A stretch of DNA of 17,910 nucleotides, from positions 1-17,910 of the forward strand of contig WJMJ01000154.1 in NCBI GenBank assembly GCA_014728035.1, given 5' to 3'. The position numbers and the translations under genes are program-made. The notes beneath the pieces are model-generated. The model did no database searches. It was not told the DNA's origin and worked only from the letters and a program-made list of their open reading frames with translations. Source of the DNA: Promethearchaeota archaeon (lineage in GTDB: Archaea; Asgardarchaeota; Thorarchaeia; Thorarchaeales; Thorarchaeaceae). Below, piece by piece: positions 6,864 to 12,579 of the stretch. Every line of letters starts with the position of its first letter. Position 1 is the first letter of the stretch.

Positions 6864-6884
6864 CTATACCTAGATGATATATAA
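6864..6884 (+). promoter_or_regulatory. Putative promoter for scaffold/array 1
   Basis: CTATACCTAGATGATATATAA, 18/21 identical to 7161-7181, runs into TATAAT directly before the scaffold. Confidence 0.55.
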
Positions 6885-6948
6885 TTCAGGCCCTCATCCT
6901 CGGGCCTAAGCTCACCCATGATGGTGAGTAATCTCCGGATGGAGACCA
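6885..6948 (+). ncRNA. Structured scaffold (tracrRNA/scoutRNA-like), copy 1
   Basis: 62/64 identical to 9647-9710. Hairpins AGGCCC-[TCATCCTC]-GGGCCT, CTCACC-[CATGAT]-GGTGAG and TCTCC-[GGAT]-GGAGA. Loop 1 is complementary to the repeat 3' end. Confidence 0.75.
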
Positions 6949-6955
6949 CTTTAGT

Positions 6956-7099
6956 ATCGTCTTTGTGCGCGTGTGGAAGGATGATGATGACCGTGGATCG
7001 GTTCCCCCTTCCCGCAATCGTCTTCGTGCGCGTGTGGGAGGATGGCCCCAGCACGTACATAGCACAGGAAGCACTCCAATCGTCTTCGTGGGAGGATGG
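6956..7099 (+). CRISPR. CRISPR mini-array 1 (3 repeats, 2 bounded spacers plus a probable trailing spacer)
   Basis: Repeats at 6956-6984 (ATCGTCTTTGTGCGCGTGTGGAAGGATGA), 7017-7045 (ATCGTCTTCGTGCGCGTGTGGGAGGATGG) and 7079-7099 (8-nt internal deletion). Spacers are 32 and 33 nt. Confidence 0.8.
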
Positions 7100-7160
7100 G
7101 CTGGACCCGACTGCGCGGCCTTCGGCCCCAGTATAGACATACTATCTTTCCTAACGTAAC

Positions 7161-7181
7161 CTATACCAGGATAATATATAA
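7161..7181 (+). promoter_or_regulatory. Putative promoter for the Cas12f-like operon
   Basis: CTATACCAGGATAATATATAA, a near-copy of 6864-6884, followed by an AGGAGG RBS at 7199-7204. Confidence 0.55.
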
Positions 7182-7210
7182 ATCACTTCTCTCACTTTAG
7201 GAGGATCACT

Positions 7211-8602
7211 ATGGCTAAGAAGACAAAAAAGAAGGTTGTTAAGAAAAAGACGGATGACAAAAAAGAGGACAAGCCAAAACGGATTGGTAAAACCCTATCA
7301 TTGAGGGTTGATGTTGATGTTCCATTTTATTGTGAGGCAAATGGCATAGAGGTGCCAGTTGGGAAAACTGAGTATAACGAAATACGCAATGAACTCAGGA
7401 CGATAATTCGGAATGATATCAAGCGGTATAGGTTCGTACTCAGACAAGCTGCCAGTATTCTAGCATTTGCAGCCACAGTGACACAGCACATAGAATTTAA
7501 AGATGATGATATTAGGGTATATGCAACCTCTGAAGAAATGAAAGAAACTCTGCGCACACTATTTGGAAGGGATGGTGCCGCGTGTTTCTATTCGCTTAGA
7601 GAATGGGTGATTGAAAGATTGGGTGGATGGCGTACTGAACATTGGGATCATATGCGCAACGAATTGCAAACCAATTGGTTTGCTAAAGATCCCCAGTTTG
7701 GTGCTAGTCGTGGGTGGCTCATTCTGAATTGTGCACGTATTCCTGCATTGTTCCACAATGCACCGATTAACTTTCTACCTTGTAGCGTGAAAGTTGATGA
7801 TGGCGGTCACCATATTAGTCTTAGCGTACGTCCAAGGGAGCGTTTTGGATTGCGTATTGCATCGACTGATAAGTCTCAATGGTTTTTGTGGAATAGAATT
7901 CTGAATAATGATGGATATCGGATGGGAACGTGCAAACTTTGTATTAACCGTAAACATCAATGGAAGTTTCTGGTTACCTATACTTGTGAGGAAACCAAAT
8001 CTGTTCTGAATCCTAAGCGCACTCTTGAGGTGGCCTTTACTGATGATCCCAAGAAATTCATCCAGTTTGCTATGAGATCTGGCCATAAGACTCTTATTGA
8101 TGACTTGAGAAATAAGCACTTGGATGCCACTGCTGCCATTAGAATCCTGGACAAGTTCAAAGCACAACAGCGTTACCTTGAAGAGGAGCGTGATGCATGT
8201 CGATATGGCAGAGGTGGTTATAATAAAGCATACAAAGCGGTTAACAAACGGAGGGCTAAGTATACAGAGGGAAGAGAAAGAGTATGTGCCAATTGGAATC
8301 ATACCTGGAGTAAGAGAATTATTACTATTGCACAGCAATGGGATTGTGGTAACATTGAAGTATTCAATATGCCGTCTCACAGTGTAAAAAAGAAGAATCT
8401 CGAAAAGCACGGTGCAGCAGCGGCAATTGAAGAATGTGCAATGCAAGAAGAGATTCGATCCAATTTGTTTGGTAGGGAATGGGCTTGGTTTGATTTTGCT
8501 CAGAAGGTGAAATATAAAGCCAGGGATGCAGGATGCAAGGTCAAATTCATCGAGAATGTAGACATAGACCATATTCTAGACATAGGTGCATCTGTATCGT
8601 GA
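7211..8602 (+). CDS. Cas12f/TnpB-like protein, predicted nuclease-dead and C-terminally truncated
   Basis: The C-terminal half follows the Cas12f/TnpB RuvC layout: KWKFLVTYT...KRTLEVAFTDD (RuvC-I position), NWNHTWSKRIITIAQQWDCGNIEVFNM (RuvC-II position), WAWFDFAQKVKYKARDAGCKVKFIE. It stops before the Zn finger and RuvC-III. Flanked by CRISPR arrays. Confidence 0.75.
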   Translation: MAKKTKKKVVKKKTDDKKEDKPKRIGKTLSLRVDVDVPFYCEANGIEVPVGKTEYNEIRNELRTIIRNDIKRYRFVLRQAASILAFAATVTQHIEFKDDDIRVYATSEEMKETLRTLFGRDGAACFYSLREWVIERLGGWRTEHWDHMRNELQTNWFAKDPQFGASRGWLILNCARIPALFHNAPINFLPCSVKVDDGGHHISLSVRPRERFGLRIASTDKSQWFLWNRILNNDGYRMGTCKLCINRKHQWKFLVTYTCEETKSVLNPKRTLEVAFTDDPKKFIQFAMRSGHKTLIDDLRNKHLDATAAIRILDKFKAQQRYLEEERDACRYGRGGYNKAYKAVNKRRAKYTEGRERVCANWNHTWSKRIITIAQQWDCGNIEVFNMPSHSVKKKNLEKHGAAAAIEECAMQEEIRSNLFGREWAWFDFAQKVKYKARDAGCKVKFIENVDIDHILDIGASVS

Positions 8603-8604
8603 TG

Positions 8605-8723
8605 GCGATGTGATGTGAAGCAATACGAGATGTGGTAGAGCGATGGTTCTGTAAGACATAACGTATCGTTGCGTAAATCAACGAATGCAAAGCACATCGG
8701 GTGGTCGTGGGTGGTCCACGGCC
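8605..8723 (+). ncRNA. Putative guide-type ncRNA with 5-nt periodic RYR-NN units and a 3' hairpin
   Basis: Eight consecutive RYR-NN pentamers at 8605-8644. The phase shifts by +1 at 8646 and again at 8687 (41-nt blocks). Hairpin GGTCGTGG-[GTGGT]-CCACGGCC at 8703-8723. Confidence 0.55.
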
Positions 8724-8748
8724 CATTGTGGAAACTGGAGGAAAAACC

Positions 8749-9438
8749 GTGAAGACAATCAGAGTGAAAGCGACGTTTTTGGAGCCTGTGTTGGGCACTG
8801 TGGCTGGAGATCCAGAGATTTATGAACAGTTTATTGCCAGTAAACGGCCTGATGGTGTGGATCCAGAAGAGATTGAGGCAATCCCAACGTTGGAGGAGGA
8901 TTTGGAAAAGGGAGCGACAGTGTTCGCTCGTATAAATGAAACTGGTACACCCATGCTCTGGGATTATCAGATTCGTGGATTCTTCAAAGAGGCATTTAAA
9001 TCCATGATCGATATTACTGGATCTTGTATCGACACAAAGGAGAAGCAGAAGAAATACAGGCTCACCAATTATACGTGCAAAAAGACGGTGGATAATCATA
9101 TTGGTGTCACGCCACGACGAGTTGAACTGCATCTGCCGGAGGGTGGTGAACTTACATTTTGTCAGCGACCGCTTCGGGCTGAAACGATGAGAGGAGAACG
9201 AATCGCTCTCGCTTATAGTGAAGAAGCACCGGCTGGAAGCTGGGTTGAATTTACGATCACATTGATGGACGATAAGCTCGAAGAACCAGTGCTTCAGGCA
9301 TTGATGTATGGGGCACACAAAGGATTCGGACAATGGCGCAATAGCGGTAAGGGGCGATTTGAAGTTGAAATTCTGGATGAAGAAAAAACATCCCCCGATT
9401 GGCTCAACACAAGCAAGATTAAGCGTAAGACAGATTAG
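8749..9438 (+). CDS. Stand-alone RAMP / Cas7-fold RNA-binding protein (229 aa)
   Basis: Likely start is GTG 8749, with GGAGG at 8737-8741. RAMP-like elements: IRVKATFLEPVLG, PMLWDYQIRGFFKEA, thumb QRPLRAETMRGERIALAYSEEAPAGSWVEFTITL, Gly-rich loop YGAHKGFGQWRNSGKGRFEV. Confidence 0.75.
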   Translation: MKTIRVKATFLEPVLGTVAGDPEIYEQFIASKRPDGVDPEEIEAIPTLEEDLEKGATVFARINETGTPMLWDYQIRGFFKEAFKSMIDITGSCIDTKEKQKKYRLTNYTCKKTVDNHIGVTPRRVELHLPEGGELTFCQRPLRAETMRGERIALAYSEEAPAGSWVEFTITLMDDKLEEPVLQALMYGAHKGFGQWRNSGKGRFEVEILDEEKTSPDWLNTSKIKRKTD

Positions 9439-9454: not shown

Positions 9455-9640
9455 ATGCGTTGTGTCAATGAAAATTGTGATCGTGATTCTGATTGTCTGG
9501 GTGCAGTGCTGGTCAACGCGGATGGTGACTTTGCCTGCTGCAAAACTTGTGCGGAAGAATATCGTAAGCAACGAGATCATTTCTTTGCCGTAACAGTGCA
9601 TGATGAAGAACTCACAGCCGCATATTTGCGAGGCGAATAA
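9455..9640 (+). CDS. Small Cys-rich, putative Zn-binding protein (61 aa)
   Basis: CxxxxC...DGDFACCKTC. Fills the gap between the RAMP gene and scaffold copy 2 on the same strand. Confidence 0.65.
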   Translation: MRCVNENCDRDSDCLGAVLVNADGDFACCKTCAEEYRKQRDHFFAVTVHDEELTAAYLRGE

Positions 9641-9646
9641 CGTATT

Positions 9647-9710
9647 TTCAGGCCCTCATCCTCGGGCCTAAGCTCACCCACGACGGTGAGTAATCTCCGG
9701 ATGGAGACCA
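9647..9710 (+). ncRNA. Structured scaffold (tracrRNA/scoutRNA-like), copy 2
   Basis: 62/64 identical to 6885-6948. Both differences (9681, 9684) fall in the loop of hairpin 2. Confidence 0.75.
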
Positions 9711-9725
9711 TACAACGGGTGTAAT

Positions 9726-9991
9726 GTGACGCCCACGTGCGCATGGGAGGATGGGGTGCCACACGGATCCGCACGATTTTGCCGTGCGTGACGCCCACGT
9801 GCGCATGGGAGGATGGTGAAAAGATGCGAGCGGCTGAACATATACGAGCGTGACGCCCACGTGCGCATGGGAGGATGGGAGGATCTCGAAATCCTCGAAA
9901 CTATGTGACGCCCACGTGCGCATGGGAGGATGGCTGTAAAAGGACCAAGAAGGAAATCAGCGCAAGTGACACCCCATGTATGGGAGGATGG
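9726..9991 (+). CRISPR. CRISPR mini-array 2 (5 repeats, 4 bounded spacers plus a probable trailing spacer)
   Basis: GTGACGCCCACGTGCGCATGGGAGGATGG is identical at 9726, 9788, 9850 and 9905, with a degenerate 26-nt copy at 9966-9991. Spacers are 33, 33, 26 and 32 nt. Confidence 0.95.
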
Positions 9992-10075
9992 GTATCGGGA
10001 CCCTTCAGGTGCAGAGATATGAGCTTGATTGTTTCAATATATAATTCTACATCTTTGGTGTAAAAGGAGAATATT

Positions 10076-10768
10076 ATGGTCAACACGGCTGAAAAAATCG
10101 ATAAGGTTGAAGCAGAACCAATTGGTGAAATGTCTGATGACGAATTCCAGCAAGTTCTTATTGAGCTTGATGCGATCATTGAAGATATTGTTGACAAGAT
10201 GCTCAGTATGGCAACATATCTAGGACGCATGAGCAAACCACAGATTAAGGAGGTATGTCAACGATACAAAGGAACTATATCTGCGGATCACATCAAACGA
10301 ATCGCATTATTCGGTCGCGGAATGATCAAGGAATATATGGCTAGACCGGAGAAATACATTTATGCCACAGAACTGCAACGATATAGTGATAAAGCTAGAC
10401 AAGATGTGGCAGATCCGGAACGCGTAGTTGAAGTATTGACCATACATGGGCGCAAATCTGAGGTATCAAATAAGAAATTGTGCGAATTGACCCCAGTGCA
10501 GATGATTAATGTGGTGGACCCAATTTATGGTATTCGCACAGTGAAACAACAGGAGAAAGTATTTGTTAGTAATATAAAGAAAGCCTGTAAGAGACAAAAA
10601 AGAACTCCGTCAGACGAAGAAATCAAGTCATTTCTTTATGCATCTGCAGAGCCATCAGAGGATGGTAAATTTATTGTAATTCGAGGGCATGAGGGCGATT
10701 GTGTGCCTGTCATGAAAATTGAAATACCGGCATCTACGATTAAAGATATATTGAGCAGTATTACATAA
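10076..10768 (+). CDS. Hypothetical protein
   Basis: 230-aa ORF with AAGGAG RBS. No family recognised. Confidence 0.75.
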   Translation: MVNTAEKIDKVEAEPIGEMSDDEFQQVLIELDAIIEDIVDKMLSMATYLGRMSKPQIKEVCQRYKGTISADHIKRIALFGRGMIKEYMARPEKYIYATELQRYSDKARQDVADPERVVEVLTIHGRKSEVSNKKLCELTPVQMINVVDPIYGIRTVKQQEKVFVSNIKKACKRQKRTPSDEEIKSFLYASAEPSEDGKFIVIRGHEGDCVPVMKIEIPASTIKDILSSIT

Positions 10769-11340: not shown

Positions 11341-12579
11341 TTATAATAATTTTTCCAACTCTGGACGTGCTTTTACTGGGTCATCAAGTATTTTCATGAT
11401 CAGATCATGCATTTGTTTAGGTGGCAATTTATTTAAAGCTGTAACTATGTCGGCTTTCTTTGTTTTATCAGGCATTGCATCAAGTAATTTGCGCCACATC
11501 TCAGGGCCTATCTGGATGAGCCACGGTTCGTCCTCTAGTCTATCGGCATGTGCCAGAACTGTTTCCGTGGTTTCTTCATCCATGTCTGATAATCCATGAT
11601 GTGATAATAACTCCATCACGCCCTTGGACAATTCTTGAACTAGGATTGGAAACATGATGGCTTTGGCTTCAATCTTTGGTGTGTCGTTGCTATAAGTTAC
11701 CTTCTCTGACCCCACAGCCATTCCAGCCAGCTGCTTTGCCATAGATGATATATCCATCATCCAATATTGTTTATGTGATGCCGATGTGATTTTATCGTAT
11801 AAATTGAGTAACTCAGTATCAATCTTTTTGAGTTCTCTATTGACGAGGTGATGTACCGTCATCATCATATCTACCGCAGATCCTTGGGTTAGTGCGTTTA
11901 TGGTAATGCGTTTGTTTATTTGATCTATCATTTCTTGTGATAATTCAACGTCTTCTGACGATTTGGTAGTATTGATATCCACAGCGTCTGTGATATTGGC
12001 CTCTAACATTGACACCGGAATACCCCATACCTCGGACACCGTATTCACTGCCAAAGATTCCAATTCCTCTTTGTGTGCTCTTTCTTTTTGCATAATCTGT
12101 TGAAACACCTGCATCAGATTGCGCACATTCCCACCTACATCACCCATACGCTTATTAGTGTGTTCAAAAGATTTCTTTGACAACGACTTACCGTATACTG
12201 ACATTATTGGGTGTTTGCTAAATATATGTCGTTTTTGTTTGGGCAGATTTTCCCAGAATTCTCTGGTTGATGGATTGGCTTCTTCCTCATAAGCTTCGGT
12301 CATAATAACCATCATCTCATTTTTAGGTGATGGTTGTATCTTGGGCTGGGGTGGTCTAAACGGATCTGGTTTGGCTGGTTTGGGACTTGCCGGTGATGGT
12401 TTTGTTTCTGGTTTTGTCTGCGGCTTTGCGGGTGCTACAGCCGGACCTGCTGCAACCGCCCCCGTGGACATTGTGTTTTTGGCCTTAGGTTTTGATTTAG
12501 GTTCTGGTGGATTGAATGGTTCTTCTGGTGAGGTATCCAATTCTTCTAATGTCTTGTCTAATAACTTCTTGAAATTCAT
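11341..12579 (-). CDS. Hypothetical phage protein with Pro/Lys-rich N-terminal linker
   Basis: 412-aa ORF with AGGAGGAG RBS. A PAKP-rich segment precedes a helical domain (KRITINALTQG...FPILVQELSKGVMELLSHHG). Confidence 0.85.
   Translation of the reverse strand: MNFKKLLDKTLEELDTSPEEPFNPPEPKSKPKAKNTMSTGAVAAGPAVAPAKPQTKPETKPSPASPKPAKPDPFRPPQPKIQPSPKNEMMVIMTEAYEEEANPSTREFWENLPKQKRHIFSKHPIMSVYGKSLSKKSFEHTNKRMGDVGGNVRNLMQVFQQIMQKERAHKEELESLAVNTVSEVWGIPVSMLEANITDAVDINTTKSSEDVELSQEMIDQINKRITINALTQGSAVDMMMTVHHLVNRELKKIDTELLNLYDKITSASHKQYWMMDISSMAKQLAGMAVGSEKVTYSNDTPKIEAKAIMFPILVQELSKGVMELLSHHGLSDMDEETTETVLAHADRLEDEPWLIQIGPEMWRKLLDAMPDKTKKADIVTALNKLPPKQMHDLIMKILDDPVKARPELEKLL

Follow-up and report, generated by a model that had tools for sequence, protein, structure and literature searches.

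A short pentamer tract upstream of a stand-alone RAMP gene on a phage contig: a candidate VIPR-type guide in a Cas12f-like setting

The closest described systems to the locus reported here are the VIPR systems, which are known only from two 2026 preprints (bioRxiv 10.64898/2026.04.26.720920 and 10.64898/2026.04.26.720927). As described there, a phage RAMP protein (Vipr) places one protomer on each 5-nt unit of vrRNAs composed of GGY-NN units (10.64898/2026.04.26.720920,.720927). Vipr hides the GGY bases and shows the NN bases for gapped pairing to dsDNA, skipping every third target base, by which rival elements are silenced (10.64898/2026.04.26.720920,.720927). In the cryo-EM structure of SUSP1 Vipr reported in these preprints, D177 reads the first G, and a W and an R contact the fixed bases. 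The methods of the first preprint name alternative NNNGG, YNNNG and NNNNG repeats, its classification holds seven VIPR types, and its legends describe 'staggered' arrays in which vrRNAs overlap by 1 nt (10.64898/2026.04.26.720920, fig. S17-S18). Systems with a single vrRNA are also reported in the 2026 preprints. Variants other than type II are barely characterised. An earlier note on this DNA had likened a 5-nt rhythm ahead of its RAMP gene to viral VIPR-type systems, and these prove to be the published ones (10.64898/2026.04.26.720920, 10.64898/2026.04.26.720927).

The window, by which we mean the whole stretch of DNA analysed (17,910 bp), is one entire contig (WJMJ01000154.1, C131 in our numbering) of a 4.3-Mb metagenome bin and has 41% G+C. 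As it encodes a major capsid protein of T4 type (Gp23, E 2e-76), it is taken to be a phage fragment, which gives the locus the phage or provirus location of a VIPR system; homologues of its 229-aa RAMP protein come from IMG/VR and phage records. On the + strand, a gene for a Cas12f/Cas12u3-like protein of 463 aa (7211..8602) is followed directly by a spacer of 146 nt (8603-8748, + strand), which extends from the stop codon at 8600-8602 to a GTG start codon at 8749. The vipr-like gene (8749..9438, + strand) has a GGAGG ribosome-binding site at 8737..8741, 7 nt ahead of this GTG, and a Cys-rich ORF of 61 aa, possibly for an accessory protein, lies directly downstream (9455..9640, + strand). A promoter and terminator scan found neither a + strand promoter-like site nor a terminator in the spacer. 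ATATATAA(T/A) motifs occur ahead of the Cas12f-like gene (7170-7185), ahead of the first of two hairpin scaffolds described below (6876-6888) and ahead of a gene at 10076 (10036-10050). The lack of any such motif in the spacer suggests that transcription enters the tract and vipr from upstream, probably in one transcript with the Cas12f-like gene.

Searches of Pfam and PHROG returned no family for the 229-aa protein. The top Foldseek matches of its AlphaFold model (pLDDT 86) are Cas7 subunits from type VII and from type III complexes, at E 5e-8 and probability 1.0, the family profile matches Cas7 and Csm4 chains at the G-loop, and the best BFVD match is a phage 'RAMP superfamily protein'. An alignment of 30 sequences reveals an invariant C-terminal loop, G-x-G-Q-W-R-N-S-G-x-G-R-F (GFGQWRNSGKGRF in the protein of this locus), and every family-invariant residue is retained by the vipr-like gene. 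No other class 1 cas gene (partners Cas5, Cas6, Cas8 and Cas10) was found in the window. By profiles and predicted structure, the protein is thus a stand-alone RAMP outside any CRISPR-Cas operon, with a Cas7-like fold of RRM core, glycine-rich loop and thumb. More than 2100 relatives were returned by one search, and 575 IMG/VR loci were confirmed; within the same phylum, a homologue was found in only one of 399 other genomes. The closest relatives are P0002 (58% identity) and P0003 (55%). A 20-residue C-terminal tail (window 9390-9438; consensus DWL.xSK.K.K) is common only to these two and the 229-aa protein and is missing from the other 27 aligned homologues; it could be a partner-docking piece.

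We located the locus of Escherichia phage SUSP1 in KT454805, where vipr occupies 28474-29061 and is accompanied by four vrRNAs, which are built from YNNGG units and have a structured tail at the 3' end. An hhalign comparison with SUSP1 Vipr (GVGDWRPRFGRF) gave E-values of 6.8e-4 with a single sequence and 1.5e-4 (probability 51%) between profiles, both confined to the C-terminal G-loop over 32-34 columns. Both proteins share the G-loop motif G-x-G-x-W/Y-R...G-R-F. The pentamer period with one protomer per unit, which is established for type II VIPR of SUSP1, would hold here too, and in both loci one vrRNA (here a candidate) lies upstream of vipr and a hairpin comes after the repeats. In contrast, the SUSP1 unit is GGY-NN whereas that of the present family is G-(C/H)-NNN, and D177 of SUSP1 is replaced by an invariant Q in this RAMP family while W178 and R179 are kept. 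The present locus also differs in lacking a conserved tail with a pseudoknot, and a search for vap1 homologues gave none. As the W and R are kept and the D that reads the first G has become Q, we infer that the family unit, placed in the SUSP1 register, is x-G-Y-N-N, which is YNNNG with its first G relaxed; homology to SUSP1 would then point to bases 3-4 of each G-Y-N-N-N unit as those that pair. Cas7 backbones on the crRNAs of class 1 systems share the RAMP fold, G-loop and thumb, and they also polymerise along a guide with every n-th base flipped. Their period is 6 nt rather than 5, however, the guide here is internally repetitive and has no repeat-spacer layout, and the Cas5, Cas6, Cas8 and Cas10 partners of class 1 systems are not in the window.

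The earlier note had proposed that the flanks of RAMP homologues should show whether 5-nt tracts accompany the gene. We collected 105 loci from phage records, IMG/VR and JGI metagenomes, all carrying RAMP homologues with identities of 37-52%; the contigs of P0002 and P0003 were found neither in IMG/VR nor in the JGI metagenome collection. Simple scans revealed long GCNNN runs beside the homologues on the gene's own strand. A 7-state HMM, with one background state, one state for each of the five positions of a unit and one for an extra base that may be absent, was trained on the flanks of 58 non-redundant loci. Far from lacking period-5 arrays, 53 of the 58 loci have a same-strand pentamer array beside the RAMP gene, with a best + strand score of 31-286 nats, and the remaining five are short contigs. 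Positions are regular as well: 50 of the 53 arrays begin at most about 20 nt past the stop codon (usually 3 nt) or end, mostly, 23-38 nt ahead of the start codon, and three are farther away (up to 2.5 kb in L077). Consistent with the proposed connection between the tract and the RAMP gene, this stand-alone Cas7-like RAMP therefore belongs with relatives that nearly always carry a same-strand pentamer array. A very large RAMP family thus carries staggered G(C)NNN arrays almost without exception, and the trained HMM provides a simple detector for such arrays. The genes that neighbour the RAMP elsewhere are varied phage replication and recombination genes.

The grammar of the family arrays is simple. 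The HMM emits G in 94% at the first unit position and C in 62% at the second, followed by three variable A-rich positions, and an extra G is inserted after about one unit in six. Blocks between extra Gs are mostly 26, 31 or 36 nt long and more rarely 41 or 46 nt (n x 5 + 1), within arrays that span 140-970 nt. The commonest junctions are GCAAAG|GC, GCAATG|GC and GCAACG|GC, and GCGATG|GC occurs 15 times. As vrRNAs of staggered VIPR arrays overlap by 1 nt, blocks of n x 5 + 1 look like such arrays. By sequence the family unit is the YNNNG/NNNNG variant already named in the preprint and so is not new. Very long and clean staggered GCNNN arrays are found on GC-rich viral contigs (L007 2104-2920 and 3626-4200, also L005, L006, L086, L087 and L090), where they flank the RAMP gene on both sides, reach about 800 nt and comprise dozens of blocks. 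These would be good material for deriving the pairing rule of this VIPR clade.

As the window is AT-rich, a second HMM was trained on only the nine AT-rich homologue loci. Its first unit position is G in 93%, and its second is C (41%), A (33%) or T (24%) and never G. With this model, 8594-8655 is the top match of the whole 17.9-kb window on both strands, scoring 12.5 nats against a 95th percentile of 12.15 for shuffle maxima. The tract that the earlier note had singled out is thus also where a model trained on other loci places the best match of the window. On real sequence, 35 segments score as high in 8.66 Mb of assembly (4 per Mb), and at the real-sequence rate of the 4.3-Mb assembly about 0.001 matches this good are expected in the 210 nt before the RAMP gene. 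The tract as bounded by this model (8594..8655, + strand) comprises 12 units, parsed as GTATC GTGAT|G GCGAT GTGAT GTGAA GCAAT ACGAG ATGTG GTAGA GCGAT|G GTTCT GTAAG, and its first nine bases are shared with the end of the 463-aa ORF, stop codon included. Ten of the 12 units begin with G, as do six of the eight in block 1 (8605..8645, + strand), a candidate for a single complete vrRNA of eight pentamers and one G (41 nt) between the junctions GTGATG|GC and GCGATG|GT. The 41-nt block length of 8 x 5 + 1 read by the earlier note agrees with the n x 5 + 1 grammar of the family, and both junctions fit it. Six consecutive G-start units cross one junction at 8594-8624, more than the minimum of four consecutive consensus units for which the preprint's search asks, at a low score. 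Side by side, the units of the tract are like those of the small real array of L100, with GT/GC units and a GCGATG|G junction. The vipr start lies 93 nt downstream of the tract end and 104 nt after block 1.

At the level of letters, the earlier description was accurate: block 1 (8605-8645) reads GCG-at GTG-at GTG-aa GCA-at ACG-ag ATG-tg GTA-ga GCG-at +g, with RYR in 8/8 units. Likewise, block 2 from 8646 has RYR in 5/8 units, block 3 from 8687 reads GCAAA GCACA TCG, and an 8-bp hairpin occupies 8703-8723. Its proposal of RYR as a new constant triplet did not survive comparison with the family, in which G alone is constant (93-94%) and is followed by C or by some other base that is not G. In homologue arrays, the constraint on the third unit base does not exceed that on the fourth or fifth. 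As the conserved core is G (plus Y) rather than RYR, it is doubtful that the last two bases of each unit form the guide, as that note had it. Nor are blocks 2 and 3 (8646..8702, + strand) supported as part of an array: they add nothing under the family model and are degenerate past 8646-8655, with G at the start of three of the nine remaining units. The hairpin (8703..8723, + strand) pairs 8703-8710 with 8716-8723 in 8 bp including one G-U, around a GUGGU loop, and no T-run follows. The RNA could be capped by this hairpin at its 3' end, or the hairpin could be a piece of a larger spacer fold.

These comparisons lead us to favour, with about even confidence, the reading that the tract at about 8594-8655, with block 1 (8605-8645) as its core, is a short and degenerate VIPR-type pentamer guide, a single vrRNA of the staggered YNNNG/NNNNG kind. 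This reading is based on the family-wide link of gene and array, the match in grammar and the position of the tract. Against it, the tract is far shorter than real arrays and scores well below them under both models, two of the eight block 1 units lack G, blocks 2 and 3 are degenerate, and there are only 146 nt of room. The homologue loci resemble staggered VIPR in having a stand-alone phage RAMP gene with 5-nt units in tandem on the same strand, each with a single fixed G (plus C/Y), and blocks offset by one base, each ending where the next begins. The present locus departs from them in two respects. It offers no more than a single good block (41 nt) and some degenerate units, compared with arrays of 140-970 nt, and it lacks the typical neighbour genes of the clade, being wedged in a Cas12f-like/CRISPR-like island.

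If the tract is a guide, it would be transcribed on the + strand together with the upstream Cas12f-like gene and vipr. One Vipr protomer would then sit on each 5-nt unit, the fixed G (and the pyrimidine where present) being held by the G-loop (QWR) and the thumb in the manner shown for SUSP1. The variable bases would be exposed for gapped pairing to dsDNA, and an 8-unit filament would silence the target. By analogy to staggered arrays, the G|G junctions at 8604/8605 and 8645/8646 may be the processed ends of the RNA. We searched for targets with five guide readings in the bin's own assembly and IMG/VR, and no target was found with any of them. With the NN dinucleotides and a 1-nt skip, a search proposed by the earlier note, the own assembly gave 16 matches at 2 mismatches versus 8 for a reversed-pattern control, and the N4N5 register gave 13 matches versus 22 for the control. 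The contiguous NNN 24-mer had no match in the own assembly, and the exact 0-skip and 1-skip NNN patterns had no match in IMG/VR. Should the guide reading be true, the 41-nt block would be the smallest natural VIPR guide in the set. The locus would then provide a convenient minimal system for the number of units needed per Vipr filament and for the cooperation of two RNA-guided silencers.

Alternatively, the tract may be the decayed relic of a VIPR pentamer array that no longer holds a working guide, with Vipr using guides elsewhere in the phage genome or serving the Cas12f-like/CRISPR-like module. We regard this as possible though rather improbable. The same AT-rich HMM scores real arrays at 37-144 nats, 3 to 11 times the score of the tract, which is the shortest and weakest array of the family and is eroded in its 3' half. 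The contig of 17.9 kb would be only a part of the phage, as its T4-type capsid suggests a much larger genome, and the Cas12f-like gene with its two mini-arrays is a context unique among the 105 loci. The best pentamer-model match of the assembly (29.4 nats), in turn, is on a different contig whose G+C equals that of the window. On the other hand, block 1 retains intact junctions and six of eight G-starts, no link was found between that contig and the window contig, and the matching tract on the former overlaps predicted ORFs. In addition, vipr keeps all family-invariant residues, which argues that it is under selection and needs some RNA. A relic would still be of interest as a record of how VIPR arrays erode when the gene enters a new context.

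The match on the other contig (C26 12941-13134, minus strand; L120 4942-5135) has 39 units, mostly starting with G, on a tRNA-rich and phage-like contig. It runs from the last part of a 218-aa ORF across a gap of 70 nt into the first part of a 140-aa ORF, and no family is assigned to either ORF. The match may be coding sequence, or else a guide array that the same phage encodes at a distance from vipr. No canonical pentamer array was found in the window or anywhere in the 4.3-Mb assembly. A scan of the window for canonical YNNGG/NNNGG units matched only 12340-12384, the strongest period-5 signal of the window (NNNGG-like units). We rejected this match as coding low complexity, since it lies antisense to a linker rich in Pro and Lys (PKPAKPDPFRPPQPK) within a 412-aa ORF (11341-12579).

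A third explanation, which we consider unlikely, is that the rhythm arose by chance in an ordinary spacer, made of the 3' end and 5' leader of two genes transcribed together, with a small tandem duplication (GTGAT GTGAA) and a structured fold and without any relation to guides. The pattern was picked after the sequence had been seen. An RYRNN run of 8/8 equals the window-wide maximum in one of 200 dinucleotide shuffles. For any pentamer pattern with three R/Y-constrained positions (80 patterns), three of 600 pieces of 146 nt drawn at random from the window have runs of at least 8, and these three probably overlap the tract itself. When 2160 patterns from all two-letter classes are allowed, a run of 8 is found in 8 of 200 random 146-nt pieces (4%). 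The RYR run is further inflated because the first three units (GCGAT GTGAT GTGAA) are near copies of each other. Fourier power at period 5 places the tract in the top 0.2% of positions with a 40-nt frame and is ordinary with longer frames or R/Y coding; the generic period-5 power of the tract is unremarkable. Taken alone, the rhythm exceeds chance only moderately. The HMM trained on all 58 loci gives the tract 8.5 nats (8594-8624; 4th on its strand, posterior 0.18), below the median shuffle maximum of 9.6 nats and without significance. The spacer RNA also folds somewhat better than shuffles (z = -2.1), and such predicted self-folding is a poor fit with an extended protein-coated strand. A chance origin is countered by the finding that the best match of a model trained on other loci falls at the array site of the family and on the right strand, where about 0.001 is expected, and by the agreement of block length and both junctions with the family grammar.

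It is highly improbable that the tract belongs to the Cas12f-like system as a tracrRNA-like or processing element, or that it encodes a micro-peptide: although it comes directly after the Cas12f-like gene in a moderately structured spacer, the spacer has no similarity to the 64-nt scaffold or the mini-array repeats, Rfam and tRNA scans of the window gave no matches, and the + strand frames in the tract hold only 3-codon ORFs.

The locus is unusual mainly through its neighbourhood, a dead Cas12f-like gene and mini CRISPR arrays, with the tract itself most likely another example of a known VIPR kind. The 463-aa protein matches Cas12u3/Cas12f models (E 4e-19) and, weakly, TnpB; it is described as dead and would not cut. 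The earlier note had called the link between the RAMP gene and a dead Cas12f-like locus new, and the homologue loci bear this out, as none of the 105 contains a relative of the 463-aa protein. The 61-aa ORF and the other neighbours tested likewise have no relative in the 105 RAMP loci, and of 106 loci only this one has a Cas12f-like/CRISPR-like island as its setting. A full HMMER search returned 189 relatives of the 463-aa protein, all at 37% identity or less; a word-index search returned only the protein itself, and IMG/VR pattern scans found none.

Two CRISPR-like mini-arrays flank the block of Cas12f-like gene, RAMP gene and Cys-rich ORF. Their repeats end in GGGAGGATGG and their spacers measure 26-33 nt. 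A three-hairpin element of 64 nt, the same in both cases, lies ahead of each mini-array, and the first loop of this element (TCATCCTC) is complementary to the 3' end of the repeat. The first element and mini-array A occupy 6885..7100 (+ strand), and the second copy and mini-array B, with five repeats of about 29 nt, occupy 9647..9990 (+ strand). The true repeat-spacer arrays of the window are those at 6950-7100 and 9724-9990; the pentamer tract has none of the 20-40 nt direct repeats and unique spacers that define a CRISPR array. We also considered the mini-array spacers as pentamer guides and discarded the idea, as they have no 5-nt rhythm under the model. A search with the scaffold hairpin motif matched only an unrelated tail-sheath gene.

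This setting allows a further reading that we hold to be quite doubtful, in which one phage operon joins two cooperating, non-cutting RNA-guided DNA binders: the dead Cas12f-like protein with its scaffolded mini-arrays, and a Vipr filament with a minimal 8-unit guide. Vipr and its vrRNA might, for instance, flag a site or open it up for the Cas12f-like complex; another option is that Vipr was recruited for the handling of mini-array transcripts. Docking would rely on the C-terminal tail DWL..SK.K.K, which the 229-aa protein has in common only with P0002 and P0003.

A periodic tract of another length was observed elsewhere. Contig C42 of the same assembly (2433 nt) is occupied over its whole length, on the minus strand, by a tract of period 7 in at least four modules, with about 15-20 units of GAAG, GATG or AAAG plus NNN. 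Each module comes after a conserved leader of about 50 nt (GATTTTTGAAGGAAAG...GTAGGGAG) and has a purine-rich tail at its end. The tract looks like a different kind of periodic array.
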